Positions 3,366 to 55,195 of a stretch of 64,000 nucleotides of DNA are shown here, piece by piece. How positions within the stretch are numbered: the first letter of the stretch is position 1; each line of letters begins with the position of its first letter. The translations under genes were made by a program, and so were the position numbers. Source of the DNA: an uncultured Bacilli bacterium (GTDB lineage: Bacteria > Bacillota_I > Bacilli_A > RF39 > UBA660); contig CAKPSB010000006.1 of NCBI GenBank assembly GCA_934183155.1, positions 25,097 through 89,096 on the forward strand, in the 5' to 3' direction. The notes beneath the pieces were generated by a model. That model worked only from the letters and a program-made list of their open reading frames with translations. It did no database searches and had not been told where the DNA came from.

Positions 3366-3440
3366 TGGCAGGGGAAGCAAGACTTGAACTCACGACATTC
3401 GGTTTTGGAGACCGACGTTCTACCAACTGAACTATTCCCC
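3366..3440 (-). tRNA. tRNA-Trp (anticodon CCA)
   Basis: Reverse complement GGGGAATAGTTCAGTTGGTAGAACGTCGGTCTCCAAAACCGAATGTCGTGAGTTCAAGTCTTGCTTCCCCTGCCA. Anticodon loop CTCCAAA, very similar to B. subtilis tRNA-Trp. Upstream (minus) TTGAAT-17-TGaTATAAT promoter-like sequence at about 3461-3489. Confidence 0.85.
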
Positions 3441-3518
3441 TATTTTTTTTGACAAGTTGATTATATCACATTATTTAAACTTATTCAATGTTTTTTCATA
3501 TAATATATTGGTGAGAAT

Positions 3519-21591: not shown

Positions 21592-21743
21592 GTTTTACCT
21601 CCTTTTGGAATATATTGTAGCATTTTTTTTATTATATATAAAGATATATTAATATTTTGAAATGTGTTTTAATAAAATATTTTGTGTAAATTTGACTTTT
21701 AATAAAATAGTGCTATAATATGTTCTCGCAAAGGGGGAAATGT

Positions 21744-22010
21744 ATGAAAAAATTAGTATATAAGCCTGGTGAACACAAGGTAATAGGTCTTGTAATGGCT
21801 AACACTGTAGAGAACGGAGAGGTGTTTGTTGCTAAAGTAGCACCTCATGATGGCTATAAATTTGTTAAAAAGATTTGTGATTTGGGTTTAAAAAGCAATA
21901 ACAAAAGCTCACAGACAGTTTATGGCGAATATGTTAATGTAGTTCCTGTTATTACAAGTGACCCAGAATTTATGGGTAAACCACTTACTAAAATTCGCAA
22001 GGAATTATAG
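21744..22010 (+). CDS. Hypothetical small protein
   Basis: Start re-set to ATG 21744 (MKKLVYKPGE...) after GGGGG RBS. 88 aa, no recognised family. Lies at the left edge of the toxin island. Confidence 0.4.
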   Translation: MKKLVYKPGEHKVIGLVMANTVENGEVFVAKVAPHDGYKFVKKICDLGLKSNNKSSQTVYGEYVNVVPVITSDPEFMGKPLTKIRKEL

Positions 22011-22200: not shown

Positions 22201-22473
22201 ATGAGCAAAGCAGTTTTATCAAATGCAAACGAGAATGCAAATAAATTATATAGCGCTACTCAGAATTTATATAATGCAAGCAACCATTTAAACGAGGTTA
22301 TAAATGATTTAAATAATGGAGCTACAGCAAATAGAATTAAATTTACAGTAACTATTTTGAGTACTTTACGAGATGAAATAAACGAAGAGATACTTTTGTT
22401 GCGAAATACTGCTAACGATATTGTTAGCGTGGCAAATTCAATTGAAAATGAAAATAAAGCACGTTCAGATTAA
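22201..22473 (+). CDS. Small all-helical protein, candidate WXG100-like / LXG-associated (Lap-type) targeting factor
   Basis: ATG 22201 preceded by AAGGAG (7-nt spacer). 90 aa. Heptad-like Asn/Leu/Ile pattern predicts two long helices. No WXG motif. Positioned immediately upstream of the large toxin gene. Confidence 0.45.
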   Translation: MSKAVLSNANENANKLYSATQNLYNASNHLNEVINDLNNGATANRIKFTVTILSTLRDEINEEILLLRNTANDIVSVANSIENENKARSD

Positions 22474-22546
22474 GTAATATTTATTTTATTTTTACTGATT
22501 TAATGTAACTATTTTTTAATTATTTTGAGTGATAGGATATGGTATT

Positions 22547-24658
22547 ATGAGTTATTTTAAACCGAATAAAATTAGTAATGGTGTTCTTGGCTTGGATATT
22601 GTTTATAGCCAAATAGAAGATGCATATGAAAAAATAAATAGTTGTAATAACTGTTTAAATTATTTAATTAAAGAAAATTTGAACTATAGTATTTCAAATA
22701 TTGCTGATAAAGTTTCTAAAAATCTTAGGACTAGTAAAGAGATGCAGAATAAAATTATTGATGTTATCGATGATTATAATAAAACGATGAGGCTAACTAC
22801 CGAAAATAGTATTGATTTAAATAGTATTTTACAAATGCCAGAAGAGCTTTTCTCATTTTTAGAACATAGCTCTGGTTCAATGGTAAAAATGCTTCAAAAT
22901 AGCTGTGATGTTCTTTATGATGTTGCTAGCGATACTGGAGCTAAATTTGTAGGCGATGTCAAGAGTTGGTTTACTAATCTTTATGAAACAAATATAGTTT
23001 ATAGAGCGGCTGCGTCAACTGGGGCTTCTCTTATAAATACTGGAATATCTTTTTTAAGCGGAGCAGCAAAATTTGTTGAAGGACTATTTGATGGGGCTTT
23101 TCTTTCTTTAGCTACTTTGGCTGTACCTATTACAGGACTTATAGATATGTCTTGGAATTGTTTAACTGGGGAAAATTTGGGTTTAACTGATACGATGTTA
23201 GAAAGTACGCGAGGTGTGGTACAGTATAACGCGGTTCAGTCTTGGTGTGACTGGTTATACAACACAGATTTTGGTAAAACTATTAATGATTGCTCATTTC
23301 CTTCATTTAAAAGAGATGGAGCCATATACAACTTGACAAATCAGGCCGGCACATTAGTCACTCCAATTCTTTTGTCAGCAGTTTTAGCATATTTTGGCGT
23401 TGATCCATCTATATCTTTGCCTCTATTAGCAGGTATTTCCTCATTTGGAAATACAACAGAAAATTTTTGGCAGAATGGCACTGGAACTGTGGAGGGAATG
23501 GCAGCTGGATTTTTAGATGGTTTATATAACGCCTTTCAATGGGCTATAGGTGGAAAATTAGATGGGACAGGGGCGAAATCTATATTATTTTATACCGTTG
23601 GTGGTTTTATTGAGCCTTTATTCCAAAGCTCCTTATTTGGCTTTGCTACTGGTGATGATATATTGAAAGTTTATAATGATAGTGGTGGATTAATGACCTC
23701 ACTTCAAAGTGCATTTTTATCTGGAATTATCGCTGGATGGGGTGAGCATAGTTATAATACAAAAATAAACACACAAAGATTAGAAGAGATCAATACTAAA
23801 AAAATAGATCTTGATATTTTTAACAATAAAATATCAGAAATAAATATTGAAAGAAATATAGATTCAGATACTTTTTCAAGCTTTAATGATATTGTTAATT
23901 TTTATAAAGTACATGGTAAAGCGCCCGGTGCATACTCTGTTGATGAAATTAATAATTTTTTAAATAAATATTCCAAAGAGGGATTTGATACTTTTAATTT
24001 TCTTAATTGCAGTGTAAAAGCTGAGCAAAAAAGTGTTATACATGACATTGGAACCGACTTAACTTACGTTGGAACCGAAAAAGGCAAAATTGGAAATACC
24101 GAATTAACATTTAATGTTTTACAAGATTCTGATGGAATACGTTATCGCATTCAAAATAGTGATGTCAATAATCACTTCCGTTTAAATGAAATATATGATT
24201 CTGTTTCAAAAGTAAAAGACTTTAGTGAATCTGGGGATTTAATGAAAAACGTTAAACAAATCGATGTTGTTTCTGTAAAAAATCCAGATGATGAGTTTTG
24301 GGCACAATTTCATGGTGATGGAACATTTACTTCTGCAGCAACTTTCAATAATGGTTATGTAACTATATACAAATTATCTCCAACTATAGATCAAACAATT
24401 GCTCATGAAGCAGGTCATGGTATAGATAAAAATAATATTTTATCTGGTTCAGATTTATGGGCTAAAGCTGCTGAGTTAGATGGAAATTTTGCGAGTGAAT
24501 ATGCTCGTTCATACAGAAATGGGGCAGCAGAAAATGGAGAGAAAAATTTGTATATTGAGGATTTTGCAGATTCAATTAGAAATCTTTATTCTTTAGGCTT
24601 TGAAAGGTTTCGCCAAAAATATCCTAACAGGGCTAAATTGTTGGAATTATTATTTTAG
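22547..24658 (+). CDS. Polymorphic toxin, LXG/EsaD-like architecture, with C-terminal ATLF/M34-like zinc metallopeptidase domain
   Basis: About 703 aa from ATG 22547 (ORF-track start is GTG at 22529). N-terminal about 150 aa is helical. A Gly/Ala/Ser-rich hydrophobic central region (AAASTGASLINTGISFLSGAAKFVEGLFDGAFLSLATLAVPITG...GTGAKSILFYTVGGFIEPL) resembles the EsaD/YeeF mid-region. The C-terminus has HEAGH (nt 24404-24418), then ELDGNFASEYA and YIEDFADSIR about 35-45 aa later, like the HEFGH...EFFAEAF of the anthrax lethal factor family. Confidence 0.6.
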   Translation: MSYFKPNKISNGVLGLDIVYSQIEDAYEKINSCNNCLNYLIKENLNYSISNIADKVSKNLRTSKEMQNKIIDVIDDYNKTMRLTTENSIDLNSILQMPEELFSFLEHSSGSMVKMLQNSCDVLYDVASDTGAKFVGDVKSWFTNLYETNIVYRAAASTGASLINTGISFLSGAAKFVEGLFDGAFLSLATLAVPITGLIDMSWNCLTGENLGLTDTMLESTRGVVQYNAVQSWCDWLYNTDFGKTINDCSFPSFKRDGAIYNLTNQAGTLVTPILLSAVLAYFGVDPSISLPLLAGISSFGNTTENFWQNGTGTVEGMAAGFLDGLYNAFQWAIGGKLDGTGAKSILFYTVGGFIEPLFQSSLFGFATGDDILKVYNDSGGLMTSLQSAFLSGIIAGWGEHSYNTKINTQRLEEINTKKIDLDIFNNKISEINIERNIDSDTFSSFNDIVNFYKVHGKAPGAYSVDEINNFLNKYSKEGFDTFNFLNCSVKAEQKSVIHDIGTDLTYVGTEKGKIGNTELTFNVLQDSDGIRYRIQNSDVNNHFRLNEIYDSVSKVKDFSESGDLMKNVKQIDVVSVKNPDDEFWAQFHGDGTFTSAATFNNGYVTIYKLSPTIDQTIAHEAGHGIDKNNILSGSDLWAKAAELDGNFASEYARSYRNGAAENGEKNLYIEDFADSIRNLYSLGFERFRQKYPNRAKLLELLF

Positions 24659-24666
24659 AAAGGACG

Positions 24667-24876
24667 ATGTTTTTGAAAAGAATTGATGGACCTACACCAA
24701 ATGGTGGAACGTATGCTGAGGTATATTATTATGATGAGCATGATAAAGAAACTGATGATGTTAAAAAGGCTGTAAAAGCATATGGCCGTGAATATGATAA
24801 AAATGGCAAATTAATAAATGAAGTCTTTTTTACAAAAAACAATAATGATATTGAAGAAAAGGAGAAAATAAAATGA
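24667..24876 (+). CDS. Small acidic protein, candidate cognate immunity/inhibitor protein
   Basis: 69 aa, GGACG-type RBS. Starts 9 nt after the toxin stop. Its TGA stop overlaps the ATG of the next gene (ATGA coupling). Acidic (D/E-rich), no family recognised. Confidence 0.4.
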   Translation: MFLKRIDGPTPNGGTYAEVYYYDEHDKETDDVKKAVKAYGREYDKNGKLINEVFFTKNNNDIEEKEKIK

Positions 24877-25187
24877 GAGAAAAATATTTACCAATAGGAA
24901 CAGTTGTTACTTTAAAAGGAGCGACAAAAAAAATTATGGTTATAGGTTACTTACCAATGGTTGGTGACAAAAAGGAAGTTTATGATTATAGTGCTTGTAC
25001 TTTTCCAGAAGGAGTTTTGTCTTCAGATAAAACATTAGCTTTTAATCATAATCAAATTGAAAAAATTAACTTTGTTGGACTTGAAAATGAAGAAAGTAAA
25101 AAATTTGATGAAACTATTAAAAAGATGGTAAAAGGATTCCATGAACTTAAAGATGCAAAACTTCCTAATGATACAGAAATATTATAA
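24873..25187 (+). CDS. DUF4176-family protein (T7SSb/LXG-locus associated)
   Basis: 104 aa. LPIGTVVTLKG...KIMVIGY...YDYSACTFPEGV...FNHNQIEKINFVG matches the recalled DUF4176 consensus (LPIGSVV.LKG / YDYaGv.YPEG / FNH..I). Confidence 0.65.
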   Translation: MREKYLPIGTVVTLKGATKKIMVIGYLPMVGDKKEVYDYSACTFPEGVLSSDKTLAFNHNQIEKINFVGLENEESKKFDETIKKMVKGFHELKDAKLPNDTEIL

Positions 25188-40980: not shown

Positions 40981-41502
40981 ATGAACGACTATTTTCAAGG
41001 ATTTTCAAATGCTTTTATGATGAAATATCCAAGTGATTTAAATGATTCAAATTATCAAAATACACTTAATGAACATAATATTTTGAAAGAAAAACTTAAT
41101 AAACAAGCTGGTGACAATATGAATTTTAATAAATGTAATTTTAATAGTAGTACTAAACCGGCTCAACTATACGATGTTTATAATGGCTTTATAAGAGGTA
41201 ATATGTTTCCAAATTTATTTAATCAATATAAAATTTCTAGGCCTTTTGATATTAGACCTTTAAATGAACAAGCAGAACTTTTAACTAAGGTTGATGCTTA
41301 TACGTTTGCAGCTCATGATGTTAATTTATATTTGGATACACATCCTGATGACAAAGAGATGATTGAACTTTTTAATCAATATAGTGGGGATGCAAAAACT
41401 GCTAGAGATGAATTTGAAAATAAATTTGGTCCTCTTTTGGTAAATTCTAAAGAGGGGTTTCCTTGGGCTTGGAACAATAGACCTTGGCCATGGGAAAATT
41501 AG
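40981..41502 (+). CDS. cotJB: Spore coat protein, apparent CotJA-CotJB fusion
   Basis: 173 aa. C-terminal half has the CotJB signature (AHDVNLYLDTHPDDKEMIELFNQY). N-terminal half has a CotJA-like GNMFPNLFNQY motif. Followed 10 nt later by cotJC. Confidence 0.6.
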   Translation: MNDYFQGFSNAFMMKYPSDLNDSNYQNTLNEHNILKEKLNKQAGDNMNFNKCNFNSSTKPAQLYDVYNGFIRGNMFPNLFNQYKISRPFDIRPLNEQAELLTKVDAYTFAAHDVNLYLDTHPDDKEMIELFNQYSGDAKTARDEFENKFGPLLVNSKEGFPWAWNNRPWPWEN

Positions 41503-41511
41503 GAGGTTTTT

Positions 41512-42069
41512 ATGTGGAAATATGAAAAAAAATTGCAATATCCGGTAAATATTAAAAAAAGAGATTTAAATCTGGCTAAATGTATACTTGTTCAGTATGG
41601 AGGACCAGCTGGGGAATTAGCTGCTGCTTGGCAATATCTTGATCAACGTTATAATATGCCTGATGACAGAGGAAAGGCTTTACTTACAGATATTGGAACT
41701 GAAGAACTTGCTCACGTAGAGATTATATGTGCTATGATATATCAACTTATGAAAGGGGCTAGTAAGGAAGAAATTAAAAAAGCTGGATTAGATGGTATGT
41801 ATGCTCAGTTTGGAAATGATTTATTTCCTGCTGATGCCTTTGGCAATCCTTTTAACATGAGTTATATTAAGGTATCTGGCGATTATATTGCTGATTTAGA
41901 AAGTAATATGGGGGCAGAGCAACGAGCTAGAGCAACGTATGAACATTTAATGGACCTGACAGATGACGCTGACGTGCTTGGACCACTTTCATTTTTAAGA
42001 CAACGCGAAATAGTTCATTATCAAAGATTTAAAGAGCTTAGAGATTATTATTTGAGTTTTAGAAAATAA
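41512..42069 (+). CDS. cotJC: Spore coat protein CotJC (Mn-catalase-like ferritin fold)
   Basis: 185 aa, GGPAGELAAAWQYLDQRY and EELAHVEII di-metal motifs typical of CotJC. Confidence 0.85.
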   Translation: MWKYEKKLQYPVNIKKRDLNLAKCILVQYGGPAGELAAAWQYLDQRYNMPDDRGKALLTDIGTEELAHVEIICAMIYQLMKGASKEEIKKAGLDGMYAQFGNDLFPADAFGNPFNMSYIKVSGDYIADLESNMGAEQRARATYEHLMDLTDDADVLGPLSFLRQREIVHYQRFKELRDYYLSFRK

Positions 42070-53399: not shown

Positions 53400-53612
53400 T
53401 GCTTGGAAAAGCGATGAAGGAAAGAATAGTAGGAATCTTTTTAGAGAGTCTATGGCTGGTGAAAATGGGCAAGTGAACTACTTTAAATGGCTCTGGAGCT
53501 GTTTAGCTGAATAAGCTAGAACGTATACACACGTTATGTGTTTAAGGTAAGTTGTCTTACAAATTAAGGTGGTACCACGTTTTAAACGTCCTTATATATT
53601 AAGGATGTTTTT
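53400..53612 (+). promoter_or_regulatory. T-box riboswitch leader (Met specifier) controlling metG
   Basis: Stem I AGAGAG element with AUG in specifier position (AGAGAGTCTATGGCT). Conserved T-box AAATTAAGGTGGTACCACG (53563-53581). Terminator ACGTCCTTA-TATAT-TAAGGATGT plus TTTTTT (53586-53613). Confidence 0.75.
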
Positions 53613-53629
53613 TGTTAGGAGGGATAGGT

Positions 53630-55195
53630 ATGAAACCAAAATTTTATATAACTACATCTATTTTTTATGCATCTGCGAAACCACATATAGGAAATACTTA
53701 TGAAGGTGTTTTAACAGATGCTATCGCAAGATATAAAAGATTGATGGGATTTGATGTTAGATTTCACACTGGATGTGATGAACATGGGGAAAAAGTAGAA
53801 TCAAAAGCTTTAGCGGCTAATAAAAGTCCACAAGAGTATGTTGACGAAATATCGCTTGAGGTTAAAAGAATTGATGATTTGCTTAATATAAGTTATGACA
53901 AGTTTGTTCGAACTACTGATTTAAATCATAAAGAAGTGGTGGCTAAAATATTTAAAAAACTTTATGATAAGGGAGATATTTATAAAGGAAAATATGAAGG
54001 CCTTTATTGTACACCTTGTGAGTCATTTTTTACGGAAAAAGATTTAGTTGGTGGTAAATGTCCTGATTGTGGAAGGGAAGTTCATAAAACTGAAGAAGAA
54101 GCTTACTTCTTAAAATTGAGTAAATATAATAAATGGCTTGAAGAATATATAGAAAATCATCCTGATTTTATTAAACCAGAAAGCAGAAAAAACGAAATTG
54201 TTAATAATTTTATTAAACCTGGTGTACAAGATTTATGTGTTTCAAGGACATCTTTTGACTGGGGAATTAAAGTTCCGTTTGATGAGAAACACGTTGTTTA
54301 TGTATGGCTTGATGCATTGGTTAACTATATAACTTTTGTTGGATATGATCCTGATAATGAAAGTGAAGAGTTTAATCATTACTGGCCTGCGGATGTACAC
54401 ATAATAGGAAAAGATATTCTTAGATTTCACACGATTTACTGGCCTGTGATATTGAAAGCGTTGGATTTACCTATGCCTAAATGTGTTTTTGGTCATCCTT
54501 GGGTTCTTTCTTCTGATAGTGATAAAATGAGTAAATCTAAGGGAAATGTTTTATATGCAGATGATTTAGTTCATTTATTTGGCTGTGATGCAATTCGTTA
54601 TTATGTTTTACATGAAATTCCTTATGGACATGATGGAAATATTGGTTATGAATTAATTATTGATAGAGTAAATTCTGATTTAGCTAATACTTTAGGAAAT
54701 CTTGTTAATAGAACAATAAGTATGAGTCATAAATATTTTAATGGCGTTGTTTTTAAACCTAGTGAAATAAATGATATTGACAAAGGTTTAATTGAAATGG
54801 CAACTAGCCTAGGTGATAGAATTGAAAGCAAAATGAAAGAATTAAAAATTGCGGATGCTTTAGAAGAAATAATTGATTTGTTTAGGCAATGTAATAAGTA
54901 TATTGATGAAACTACTCCTTGGATTTTAGCAAAAGATAAAAGTCAAGAAAAAAGATTACAAACTGTTTTATATAATTTATTAGAGTGTATTAGAATTGCT
55001 GCTGTTTATTTACAAGCTTTTTTACCTCAGACAGCTGATAAAATATTTGAACAGTTAAATACTCAAAATAGGAAACCCGAAAGTACTAAAGATTTTAATG
55101 GTATGGATGATGGTATTATATTAAACAAACCGGAAATTTTATTTACTAGAATAGATAAAGCCGAGTTTTCTTCAAAGATGAAAGCTAATGATTAG
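53630..55195 (+). CDS. metG: Methionyl-tRNA synthetase (short form, no C-terminal tRNA-binding extension)
   Basis: Start ATG 53630 after GGAGGG. HIGN(T) variant of HIGH, knuckles with CPDCG zinc motif, KMSKS. About 521 aa. Confidence 0.95.
   Translation: MKPKFYITTSIFYASAKPHIGNTYEGVLTDAIARYKRLMGFDVRFHTGCDEHGEKVESKALAANKSPQEYVDEISLEVKRIDDLLNISYDKFVRTTDLNHKEVVAKIFKKLYDKGDIYKGKYEGLYCTPCESFFTEKDLVGGKCPDCGREVHKTEEEAYFLKLSKYNKWLEEYIENHPDFIKPESRKNEIVNNFIKPGVQDLCVSRTSFDWGIKVPFDEKHVVYVWLDALVNYITFVGYDPDNESEEFNHYWPADVHIIGKDILRFHTIYWPVILKALDLPMPKCVFGHPWVLSSDSDKMSKSKGNVLYADDLVHLFGCDAIRYYVLHEIPYGHDGNIGYELIIDRVNSDLANTLGNLVNRTISMSHKYFNGVVFKPSEINDIDKGLIEMATSLGDRIESKMKELKIADALEEIIDLFRQCNKYIDETTPWILAKDKSQEKRLQTVLYNLLECIRIAAVYLQAFLPQTADKIFEQLNTQNRKPESTKDFNGMDDGIILNKPEILFTRIDKAEFSSKMKAND

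Follow-up and report, generated by a model that had tools for sequence, protein, structure and literature searches.

A probable polymorphic toxin of an uncultured Bacilli bacterium with a C-terminal metallopeptidase domain of the ATLF fold and a small candidate immunity partner

The gene described here, which lies in a 64,000-nucleotide stretch of DNA from an uncultured Bacilli bacterium (hereafter the window), probably encodes a modular polymorphic toxin with a gluzincin-type, ATLF-fold payload in residues 541-703, served by a small immunity partner and exported by a T7SSb. Comparison with its homologs places the payload in a widespread and uncatalogued family of peptidase domains, which is carried at the C-termini of T7SSb-type toxins and of phage MuF and minor-capsid proteins. 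The features of the gene and of the five-gene island around it are collected in Table 1.

Table 1. Coordinates of the island and of the parts of the putative toxin (positions are those of the window).
Feature	Position	Strand	Basis or remark
Promoter-like site, TTGACT-16-TATAAT with extended -10 TG	21692..21719	+	11/12 consensus matches, best in region; consensus match only
orf1, 88 aa, first gene of the five-gene island	21744..22010	+	Called in all syntenic orthologous loci
orf2, ~90 aa, directly upstream of the toxin gene	22201..22473	+	Position conserved
Putative toxin gene, 703 aa	22547..24658	+	ATG start; orthologs P0001-P0003 are 703 aa and begin MSYFKP
N-terminal domain, residues 1-135	22547..22951	+	Presumed trafficking role, from position in the protein
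Central Gly/Ala-rich hydrophobic module, residues 136-400	22952..23746	+	jackhmmer and alignment
Linker or accessory region, residues 401-540	23747..24166	+	Lies between central module and peptidase domain
ATLF-fold zinc metallopeptidase domain, residues 541-703	24167..24655	+	159 homologs, PDB profile matches, structure model
HEAGH; H620 and H624 predicted zinc ligands, E621 predicted catalytic base	24404..24418	+	Invariant; aligns to PPEP-1 HETAH
Tyr652 (ASEYA), equivalent to PPEP-1 Tyr178 and lethal factor Tyr728	24500..24502	+	Invariant; aligns to Tyr of PPEP-1 NYLGV
EDFAD; Glu671 predicted third zinc ligand, equivalent to PPEP-1 Glu185 and lethal factor Glu735	24557..24571	+	Aligns to PPEP-1 EFFAE
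Candidate immunity/inhibitor protein, 67 aa, cytoplasmic	24673..24876	+	TTG start; 69 aa if ATG 24667
DUF4176 protein, 104 aa, Ltc-type T7SSb toxin chaperone family	24873..25187	+	PF13780 E 5e-27; start overlaps partner stop (ATGA)

The ATG at 22547 is the called start of the toxin gene in all orthologs and is preceded at a distance of 9 nt by AGGA, as read from the sequence, with the GTG at 22529 an unlikely alternative; because this likely start gives a protein of 703 aa, the glutamate that an earlier note on this DNA had numbered E627 is E621. Sequence analysis revealed no signal peptide in the protein. The N-terminal domain (residues 1-135) had no sequence match in the PDB, and neither the full protein nor its isolated N-terminal 140 residues matched LXG or WXG100 at E<10. 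The earlier note had labeled the protein an LXG toxin, a label that was not borne out by these searches, and the link to T7SS rests on gene context. The missing LXG match is nevertheless compatible with T7SS export, since sub-threshold trafficking domains have been documented in T7SSb toxins of this type (PMC13483458).

The central module (residues 136-400), for which Pfam and PDB searches returned no match, is common to at least 18 related toxins as determined by jackhmmer. It contains two borderline transmembrane-like stretches, at residues ~180-200 and 267-290, with Kyte-Doolittle values of 1.6-1.8, and by analogy with published LXG toxins it may bind DUF4176 or serve in translocation (PMC12478183). 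The toxin gene as a whole is a divergence hot-spot in conspecific strains (76-93% nucleotide identity vs. 98-99.5% in the flanking genes), and the central module is its most divergent segment (76%). In the homolog scan, alignment from about residue 495 onward was with the closest relatives only. Prediction of the structure of residues 401-703 from a four-sequence alignment was unreliable (pLDDT 35.7). The toxin domain had been placed by the earlier note at 23780-24658; its C-terminal position is upheld, but its extent is not, as the folded core covers only 24167-24655.

The motif on which the earlier note had focused, HEAGH at 24404-24418, is confirmed by the sequence, where it reads CAT GAA GCA GGT CAT in frame with the ORF 22529/22547..24658, and it is invariant across the family alignment described below. 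The two downstream segments that had been singled out with it are likewise present, with ELDGNFASEYA beginning 19 residues and NGEKNLYIEDFADSIR beginning 39 residues past the second His of HEAGH. Histidine is scarce in the protein (8 of 703 residues), such that HExxH is expected by composition 0.005 times and was seen in 0.33% of 20,000 shuffles; the occurrence of HEAGH is not due to chance.

Single-sequence searches with the 703-aa protein and its C-terminal fragments yielded no match in Pfam, NCBIfam, PHROGs or the PDB; at the relaxed limit of E<1 the protein still matched neither PF07737 (ATLF) nor any other Pfam or NCBIfam model. The full protein was also without a match to Tox-MPTase2-5, Peptidase_Mx1, Peptidase_M90 or TIGR04549, and to any protein of the GTDB species representatives. 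A word-indexed homology search returned only four near-identical proteins for the full protein, nothing for the C-terminal 303 residues (even a 91%-identical ortholog was missed), and only a truncated ortholog for the central-module profile; a scan of a genome collection with the peptidase-domain alignment recovered only two loci. The family signal emerged only after an exhaustive HMMER scan and profile building; the scan gave 159 homologs at E<1e-3, counted as clusters at 50% identity, and the family signature reads HExxH...(S/T)xYA...EDFAE(S/A)...(Y/F)PNR. The HExxH...Y...E pattern was kept in 146 of 148 family hits, and in 121 of the 148 (82%) the domain ended no more than 25 aa from the C-terminus of host proteins that range from 146 to 2249 aa. 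Genes of this family are currently annotated as hypothetical because neither Pfam nor NCBIfam holds a model for it.

When the family profile was searched against the PDB, the best match (E 3.6e-9) was to metallohydrolases of the Peptidase_Mx1/TIGR04549 type (PDB 9urd, 4l7a) and included the YA...EDF.E region. Matches were also obtained to PPEP-1/Zmp1 (E 5e-7), to lethal factor (E 8e-7 for the catalytic fragment, 1.2e-5 for the full-length protein), to the ATLF-like PPEP-3 (E 9e-4) and to MtfA. The structural model of the peptidase domain was confident (pLDDT 94.7, pTM 0.91) and adopts the ATLF three-dimensional fold, with consistent structural matches, lethal factor among them; its best viral fold matches were phage minor capsid proteins (TM 0.78). 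At the level of sequence models, 75 relatives gave sub-threshold matches to PF07737 in 17 cases (best 2.1e-5), to Peptidase_Mx1 in 25, to TIGR04549 in 23, to Peptidase_M90 in 11 and to Tox-MPTase2 in two (E ~0.03). The domain is therefore best termed "ATLF-fold" and is not a demonstrable member of M34, because the protein itself has no PF07737 match and only 17 of 75 relatives have one, below threshold. Accordingly, of the ATLF/M34 signature proposed in the earlier note, the fold and the ligand set stand and M34 membership is not demonstrated, and the Tox-MPTase match that it had suggested looking for did not materialize beyond the two relatives just mentioned. Its proposed likeness to lethal factor and PPEP-1/Zmp1, and to HExxH peptidases generally, was recovered through the family profile.

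An alignment of 75 family members shows no variation in the two His and the Glu of HExxH, the SEYA Tyr or the EDFA Glu; within EDFAD the E and A are invariant, and conservation of the D and F is 90% or higher. Profile alignment places H620, E621, H624, Y652 and E671 opposite PPEP-1 H142, E143, H146, Y178 and E185 (residues of PPEP-1 and lethal factor are numbered as is established for those enzymes), in agreement with the earlier suggestion that a downstream Tyr/Glu pair forms the third-ligand region. In the predicted structure HExxH lies inside a helix (model residues 74-86) within blocks of pLDDT 92-96, and thus not in an unstructured region. By homology, H620, H624 and E671 would hold the zinc, E621 would activate the water and Y652 would stabilize the transition state.

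The 67-aa protein encoded 14 nt downstream of the toxin gene is most likely the immunity protein of the peptidase, judging from the company that its homologs keep. It matched no known family and has no hydrophobic segment by sequence analysis; a resemblance to YwqK/MORN_2 (E 0.11-0.14) appeared in only two of six members and is not claimed. A homolog of this partner (55% identity, E 2e-21) lies directly 3' of the peptidase domain in locus L003, and others occupy the same position in L007, L012 and the phage MuF fusion L011, with a truncated candidate, weak and found by eye, downstream in L010. The partner is in fact present 3' of the domain in all complete loci examined but one, the exception being L004, where the ORF after the MuF-fused peptidase is 83 aa long and bears no evident similarity to the partner. 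The small downstream gene thus appears to co-vary with the peptidase domain, as polymorphic-toxin immunity genes do, and its protective function is putative. A reverse search with the partner found this peptidase immediately upstream in three of seven loci; the upstream neighbor in the other four was an SprT-like, M48 or EEP enzyme, or there was none. The partner is consequently not an exclusive cognate of the peptidase domain, because it also adjoins other genes. Its homologs are 58-88 aa long and share a near-invariant, proline-containing N-terminal segment, RIDGPTPNGG.

The remaining genes of the island bear upon the route of export. The first, orf1, encodes a protein that is 91-97% identical between syntenic orthologous loci and has no Pfam match; its start at 21744 is favored over an alternative ATG at 21720 because of the position of the promoter-like site. 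No family match was found for orf2, including WXG100, DUF3130 and DUF3958, and from its position and published LXG operon layouts it is a candidate Lap/WXG100-like targeting partner (PMC12478183). The last gene is assigned with confidence to DUF4176 (PF13780, 94.2 bits vs. a cut-off of 25; PDB 9dcs_A, itself a DUF4176 protein, E 1.9e-8), and DUF4176 proteins are T7SSb toxin chaperones, of which the small ones usually lie beside immunity genes (PMC12478183). This gene does not differ at all (100% conserved) between strains in which identity of the central module is down to 76%, which is not obviously to be expected of a chaperone specific to that module. A terminator scan of the region found none. 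The neighbors of the island are housekeeping genes, and in several strains it is located between ung and mgtA; it contains no phage genes. No T7SS core genes were detected in the window, nor any ORF large enough for EssC. Among the relatives, the peptidase gene of L007 adjoins two DUF4176 genes and EssC (FtsK_SpoIIIE, 1537 aa), that of L012 is preceded by three WXG100 genes and a DUF4176 gene, and the isolated N-terminal segment of relative P0006 gave a weak WXG100 hint (E 0.029). We infer T7SSb export of the 703-aa protein from the adjacent DUF4176 gene and from these relatives beside EssC and WXG100 genes.

The domain arrangement of the relatives is that of a polymorphic toxin family. The peptidase domain follows unrelated N-termini in different relatives and the central module is joined elsewhere to another C-terminus, as in the second toxin of L007 (9860-12055), which combines the module (E 4e-19) with a different C-terminal domain. 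Phage_Mu_F was detected in 14 of 101 relatives and Phage_min_cap2 in four, and L011 is a phage morphogenesis module in which portal, MuF-peptidase, small partner, scaffold and capsid genes follow one another. MuF fusions have been read as polymorphic toxins of temperate phages, and a metallopeptidase domain is reported in 20% of MuF toxins (PMC5576092).

These phage fusions raise an alternative, namely that the peptidase is a phage-derived or host-directed effector (virion-borne with MuF, or acting on eukaryotic or envelope targets) instead of an interbacterial toxin, that the gene is a domesticated copy, and that the partner is an inhibitor which protects the producer until release. The 14 Phage_Mu_F and four Phage_min_cap2 relatives, the gene order of L011 and the minor-capsid fold matches all fit such an origin, and lethal factor and the PPEPs act outside the bacterial cytoplasm. 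We nonetheless consider it unlikely, as the island between ung and mgtA is free of phage genes, the N-terminus of the protein is not MuF, a gene of a T7SSb chaperone family flanks the toxin, and EssC and WXG100 loci are where the closest relatives are found; the MuF fusions, moreover, are themselves read as polymorphic toxins (PMC5576092). Quite improbable, in our view, is that the central Gly/Ala-rich module is the real toxin, a membrane-depolarizing glycine zipper like TspA/TelE, and the peptidase a processing or release enzyme like the PVC-metallopeptidases. Against this, the partner tracks the peptidase: L003 and the MuF fusion L011 have the partner but no module, and another gene follows the module-bearing second toxin of L007. 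This outweighs the borderline transmembrane-like segments, the sharing of the module by many toxins and the fact that no part of the gene diverges faster. Polymorphic toxins are known to include releasing metallopeptidases (PMC3482391), but these are normally N-terminal to the toxin domain, and here 82% of members carry the peptidase at their very C-terminus. Pore-formers, furthermore, would not usually be paired with a soluble cytoplasmic immunity protein.

The best sequence match of the family is annotated only as a "metallohydrolase", which leaves some room for the ATLF-fold domain being no protease at all and instead another metal-dependent hydrolase, acting for instance on lipid-linked precursors or the stems of peptidoglycan, or else a binding module without catalysis, as in Certhrax and edema factor, whose N-terminal domains are lethal-factor-like. 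That reading is very improbable given that none of the residues H, E, H, Y and E varies among 75 diverse members and that all of them align with the PPEP-1 active site; non-catalytic lethal-factor-like domains are not known to contain HExxH, and a cytoplasmic partner would speak against a cell-wall substrate outside the cytoplasm of the producer. As for HExxH having arisen by chance in a low-complexity, AT-rich-encoded protein, in a region without enzymatic meaning, the empty single-sequence searches of Pfam, NCBIfam and the PDB are what could be said for it, and we reject it as having practically no probability: 0.3% of shuffles contain the motif, 159 homologs conserve the motifs, the family profile matches known peptidases, and the confident fold model has consistent structural matches. 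The reading that we retain is that of a polymorphic toxin with a peptidase payload.

Compared with known enzymes of this fold, the present domain is distant in sequence and different in setting. Identity to PPEP-1/Zmp1 of C. difficile, PPEP-2 and PPEP-3 (M34) is 12-14%, and the spacing from Tyr to Glu is 19 residues vs. 7 in PPEP-1. The PPEPs are secreted by Sec, stand alone as enzymes and trim surface adhesins of the cell that makes them, and they are not known to have an immunity partner, whereas the present domain is the C-terminal cassette of a signal-less 703-aa protein with a small partner. Lethal factor has the same fold and the same HExxH, Tyr and Glu ligand set at no more than 15% identity, and it is a toxin payload delivered into the cytoplasm of another cell, as is proposed here. 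It is a four-domain protein that cleaves MAPK kinases of eukaryotic cells after delivery by protective antigen; neither a bacterial target nor an immunity gene is known for it. The C-terminal metallopeptidase of VgrG2b of P. aeruginosa belongs to a different zincin family, is delivered by T6SS in Gram-negatives and acts in the periplasm. The Peptidase_Mx1/TIGR04549 proteins (PDB 9urd, 4l7a) are, by their family description, lipoproteins beside SusC/SusD-type importers and not C-terminal toxin cassettes.

Zincins of polymorphic toxins were predicted in 2012, with Tox-ALF-metallopeptidase assigned to PVC/T2SS and Tox-MPTase4 to T7SS WXG/LXG/LDXD leaders (PMC3482391). Tox-ALF-metallopeptidase and Tox-MPTase1-5 embody the same concept, a zincin that serves a modular polymorphic toxin as its C-terminal toxin domain (PMC3482391); Tox-ALF-MPTase goes with PVC/T2SS and Imm-SuFu, in contrast to the T7SSb-like/MuF setting and the unrelated 58-88 aa partner of the present family, a distinction that is drawn from the descriptions and from the Pfam Tox-MPTase models. 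In gene order the island resembles TelA/TelB of S. intermedius (LXG with Ltc), with a small upstream partner, a three-part toxin, an immunity gene and DUF4176 in the same sequence (PMC12478183). Unlike the LXG/Ltc systems, the present toxin has no detectable LXG and the small upstream proteins match no Lap family. The MuF polymorphic toxins are connected through the 18 of 101 relatives that are MuF or minor-capsid fusions with the same domain (PMC5576092), but the 703-aa protein has no MuF domain and lies outside any prophage.

A peptidase payload also sets the protein apart from characterized LXG toxins, which are NADases, lipid II phosphatases, nucleases or membrane-depolarizing proteins; the T7SSb/LXG activities listed in one published account are NADase, nuclease, peptidoglycan-synthesis inhibition and membrane depolarization, with no protease (PMC12482557). 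In the literature searched, we found no study of toxicity, immunity or proteolysis for any member of the peptidase family, and no experimentally studied metallopeptidase toxin delivered by T7SS. The earlier note's view that a protease payload would be unusual thus holds among characterized toxins, but such a payload has a precedent in the computational prediction of metallopeptidases for T7SS polymorphic toxins (PMC3482391).

In the mechanism that we propose, the 67-aa cytoplasmic protein would bind the peptidase in the producer cell and keep it inactive, and the DUF4176 protein and the small upstream protein would stabilize the toxin and target it to a T7SSb whose genes lie elsewhere in the genome. 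Once exported into a neighboring Gram-positive cell, the peptidase would cleave one or more cytoplasmic proteins and growth would stop.

The predicted protease cassette of 160 residues and its 67-residue partner are compact and make an easily tested pair. Phages appear to reuse the same pair as MuF fusions, which would link interbacterial conflict with phage-host conflict. The substrate, once found, would be a new essential bacterial target and would reveal a cleavage specificity that is new to the lethal factor/PPEP fold, and the partner may represent a new type among small protein inhibitors of zincins. RIDGPTPNGG proteins are also encoded directly 3' of an SprT-like peptidase and of an M48 peptidase in unrelated metagenomic loci, and we advance, tentatively and as a possibility with the balance against it, that the 58-88 aa proteins represent a family of protein inhibitors of zincins that is new and extends beyond this toxin, with the N-terminal segment acting as a pseudo-substrate in the PPEP-like cleft. 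If so, this protease toxin-immunity pair would be the first to be delivered by T7SSb and by phages; its specificity would be proline-directed and its cytoplasmic target discoverable.

Residues of the toxin were numbered from the ATG at 22547 because its orthologues, each 703 aa in length, all begin with MSYFKP and an AGGA lies upstream of this codon. The HEAGH motif, in which the earlier note had seen the signature of an anthrax-lethal-factor-like (ATLF/M34) peptidase, is coded at 24404-24418 (residues 620-624), with ELDGNFASEYA and NGEKNLYIEDFADSIR following 19 and 39 residues past H624, and the observation as a whole was confirmed. The toxin contains only 8 histidines, and an HExxH motif occurred by chance in 0.33% of composition-preserving shuffles.

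Searches with the single toxin sequence against Pfam, NCBIfam, PHROGs and PDB returned no match. An exhaustive HMMER scan (E<1e-3) resulted in the identification of 159 representative proteins related to residues 401-703, with a common core at residues about 557-703. Alignment of 75 core sequences gave the consensus HExGH...SxYA...EDFAES...PNRxxxL, in which H80, E81, H84, Y112, E131 and A134 (protein residues 620, 621, 624, 652, 671 and 674, respectively) are invariant. The HExxH...Y...E pattern was kept in all but 2 of the 148 family matches, and in 121 of the 148, from proteins of 146-2249 aa, the domain ended 25 or fewer residues from the C-terminus. Sub-threshold matches to Peptidase_Mx1, TIGR04549, ATLF and M90 were obtained for 25, 23, 17 and 11 of the 75 family members, respectively.

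Comparison of the family profile with solved structures recovered a Bacteroidota [quoted passage not shown] (9urd, E 3.6e-9), PPEP-1/Zmp1 (5e-7), the lethal factor catalytic fragment (8e-7) and full-length lethal factor (1.2e-5), the ATLF-like PPEP-3 (9g0j, 9e-4) and MtfA (2e-3). In the profile alignment, from which the PPEP-1 numbering offset was counted, the family HExxH, Tyr and EDFA-Glu correspond to PPEP-1 H142, E143, H146, Y178 and E185, residues whose roles in PPEP-1 are established. An AlphaFold2 model of the domain built on the 75-sequence alignment (pLDDT 94.7, pTM 0.91) places HExxH within helix 74-86 rather than in an unstructured region, and the best 12 Foldseek matches in the PDB were all lethal factor or Certhrax; the best viral fold matches were phage minor capsid proteins (TM 0.78). 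Taken together, the profile matches, aligned residues and predicted fold support the proposed ATLF-like structure and HExxH plus Tyr/Glu chemistry, and we regard the assignment as an ATLF-fold metallopeptidase as highly probable. The domain represents an ATLF-fold gluzincin family that has no curated model; its fold and active site resemble those of lethal factor, yet it is not demonstrably M34.

Features of the window and of other loci carrying relatives of the toxin or its partner (window coordinates unless a locus is named)
Feature	Location	Strand	Remarks
tRNA genes (two)	787-859; 3369-3441	minus	
Sigma-70-type promoter	21692-21719		near-consensus, TTGACT-16-TGnTATAAT, 11/12 matches
orf1, first island gene	21744-22010		88 aa; protein 91-97% identical across all syntenic strains
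Toxin ORF	22529/22547-24658	+	single ORF holding the whole peptidase region
N-terminal region	residues 1-135		no LXG or WXG100 detectable
Central module	residues 136-400 (22952-23746)		265 residues, Gly/Ala-rich, hydrophobic
Linker	residues 401-540		
Peptidase	residues 541-703		
Partner ORF	24673-24876	+	67 aa; TTG start, well-spaced AAGGA; starts 14 nt past toxin stop
CotJB and Mn-catalase-family (CotJC-like) gene	40981-42069		
T-box leader	53405-53596		Rfam RF00230, 118.6 bits; upstream of class I tRNA synthetase gene 53612-55195
77-aa ORF	L003 3402-3635		directly upstream of P0005-type peptidase toxin
209-aa protein	L003 2582-3211	minus	divergent to P0005-type toxin; WxG-like motifs KWKGTAA and AWRGNAAGEF
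MuF-type peptidase fusion	L004 1615-2616		contig binned as Methanobrevibacter MAG
T7SSb toxin island	L007 1-15423		
Second toxin, 731 aa	L007 9863-12058		same central module, different HExxH motif (ELHEMGHAF); unrelated 82-aa gene downstream
SprT-like peptidase with partner homologue	L014 2260-3168		partner homologue directly 3'
EEP-family enzyme with partner homologue	L016 2054-3162		adjoins partner homologue
Peptidase_M48 with partner homologue	L017 1-1446		partner homologue directly 3'

The central module, which had no match in Pfam or PDB, is common to at least 18 other family members and also occurs in the neighboring L007 toxin with a different C-terminus, while the L003 toxin and the MuF fusions have the peptidase and lack the module. 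Among 101 relatives scanned, Phage_Mu_F was found in 14, Phage_min_cap2 in 4 and WXG100 in 1. The family thus has the modular pattern typical of polymorphic toxins (Zhang et al., 2012, PMC3482391; Jamet et al., 2017, PMC5576092). The L004 fusion may belong to an archaeal provirus, or its contig may have been misbinned.

Metallopeptidase toxin domains as such had already been described, and the earlier note overstated the novelty of a protease payload. Anthrax-lethal-factor-like toxin domains with PVC and T2SS delivery and Imm-SuFu immunity, as well as Tox-MPTase4 with T7SS leaders, were listed by Zhang et al. (2012; PMC3482391), and metallopeptidase domains were reported in 20% of MuF toxins (Jamet et al., 2017; PMC5576092). 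Our literature search found no experimentally characterized T7SS-delivered metallopeptidase toxin. What is new here is the combination of a new partner family with an unmodeled toxin family of ATLF fold that occurs in T7SSb-like as well as MuF contexts.

The LXG label given to the toxin was likewise too strong, as neither an LXG nor a WXG100 domain was detectable in the window protein; no signal peptide was found in it either. The small DUF4176 protein (Pfam E 5e-27; PDB 9dcs_A E 1.9e-8) is encoded by a gene whose start overlaps the partner stop (ATGA). DUF4176 proteins are T7SSb toxin chaperones which bind a disordered middle domain, and the small ones typically adjoin immunity genes (PMC12478183; PMC12482557). 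Two relatives reside in clear T7SSb loci: P0006 (L007) is flanked by DUF4176 genes near EssC, and P0009 (L012) is preceded by three WXG100 genes and one DUF4176 gene. The L007 island also encodes a 1524-aa ADP-ribosyltransferase toxin and a protein-kinase-like gene, alongside two DUF4176 genes, P0006 with its partner, and EssC. In L003, an uncultured mouse-gut Bacilli MAG, the 209-aa protein and 77-aa ORF are likely T7SS-type partners. Against this, the 64-kb window holds no T7SS core gene, the neighbors being ftsH, tilS, ung, mgtA, pth, mfd and addAB. T7SSb toxins with sub-threshold trafficking domains have precedent (PMC13483458). Weighing the DUF4176 gene and the relatives' loci against the missing LXG/WXG100 domain and core genes, we therefore infer, by reasoning and not by demonstration, that the toxin is exported by a T7SSb.

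The five-gene island orf1-orf2-toxin-partner-DUF4176 is syntenic in several metagenomic strains; orf1 had no family match. The near-consensus promoter lies at the island head, in the divergent intergenic region adjoining ung. Nucleotide identity between the window and the conspecific strain L005 was 96.3-99.5% (mostly 98-99.5%) for flanking genes, 99.5% for the partner and 100% for DUF4176, and within the toxin 90.9% for the N-terminal domain, 76.4% for the central module, 89.0% for the linker and 93.1% for the peptidase. The toxin gene, and the central module above all, is a local divergence hot-spot. Within 1-32000, the genes change orientation and the GC skew reverses near 20-22 kb, exactly at the island (cumulative skew minimum about 20 kb), and the window holds the origin-proximal genes ParB, ParA-type ATPase, ssb, rpsF and ychF. 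A GC content of about 28%, CotJB and the CotJC-like gene suggest a spore-forming low-GC Bacillota.

The partner, which we read as a putative immunity or inhibitor protein, matched no known family and has no detected hydrophobic segment; its homologues keep the N-terminal motif (R/K)I(D/P)GPTP(N/A)GG. Homologues lie directly 3' of the peptidase in L003 (55% identity, E 2e-21), where the toxin N-terminus is unrelated, in L007, in L012 and in the phage MuF fusion L011, and tBLASTn confirmed matches in L003, L007-L009, L011 and L012. The truncated downstream ORF of L010 resembles the partner weakly by eye and was not recovered by tblastn. The exception is L004, whose peptidase is followed by an 83-aa ORF without evident similarity to the partner. 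Overall, we consider a toxin-immunity pair served by a T7SSb the likely explanation of the locus.

Metagenomes searched with only the partner sequence yielded 7 loci, with this peptidase directly upstream in 3, other zincins upstream in 2 (SprT-like in L014, 7e-13; Peptidase_M48 in L017, 7e-28), an EEP enzyme in one and nothing recognizable in one. The SprT-like, M48 and EEP neighbors show that the partner family is not confined to this toxin domain. The "RIDGPTPNGG" family may be a general zincin-associated protein, and the fact that it accompanies several zincin families may be what is most novel about the locus.
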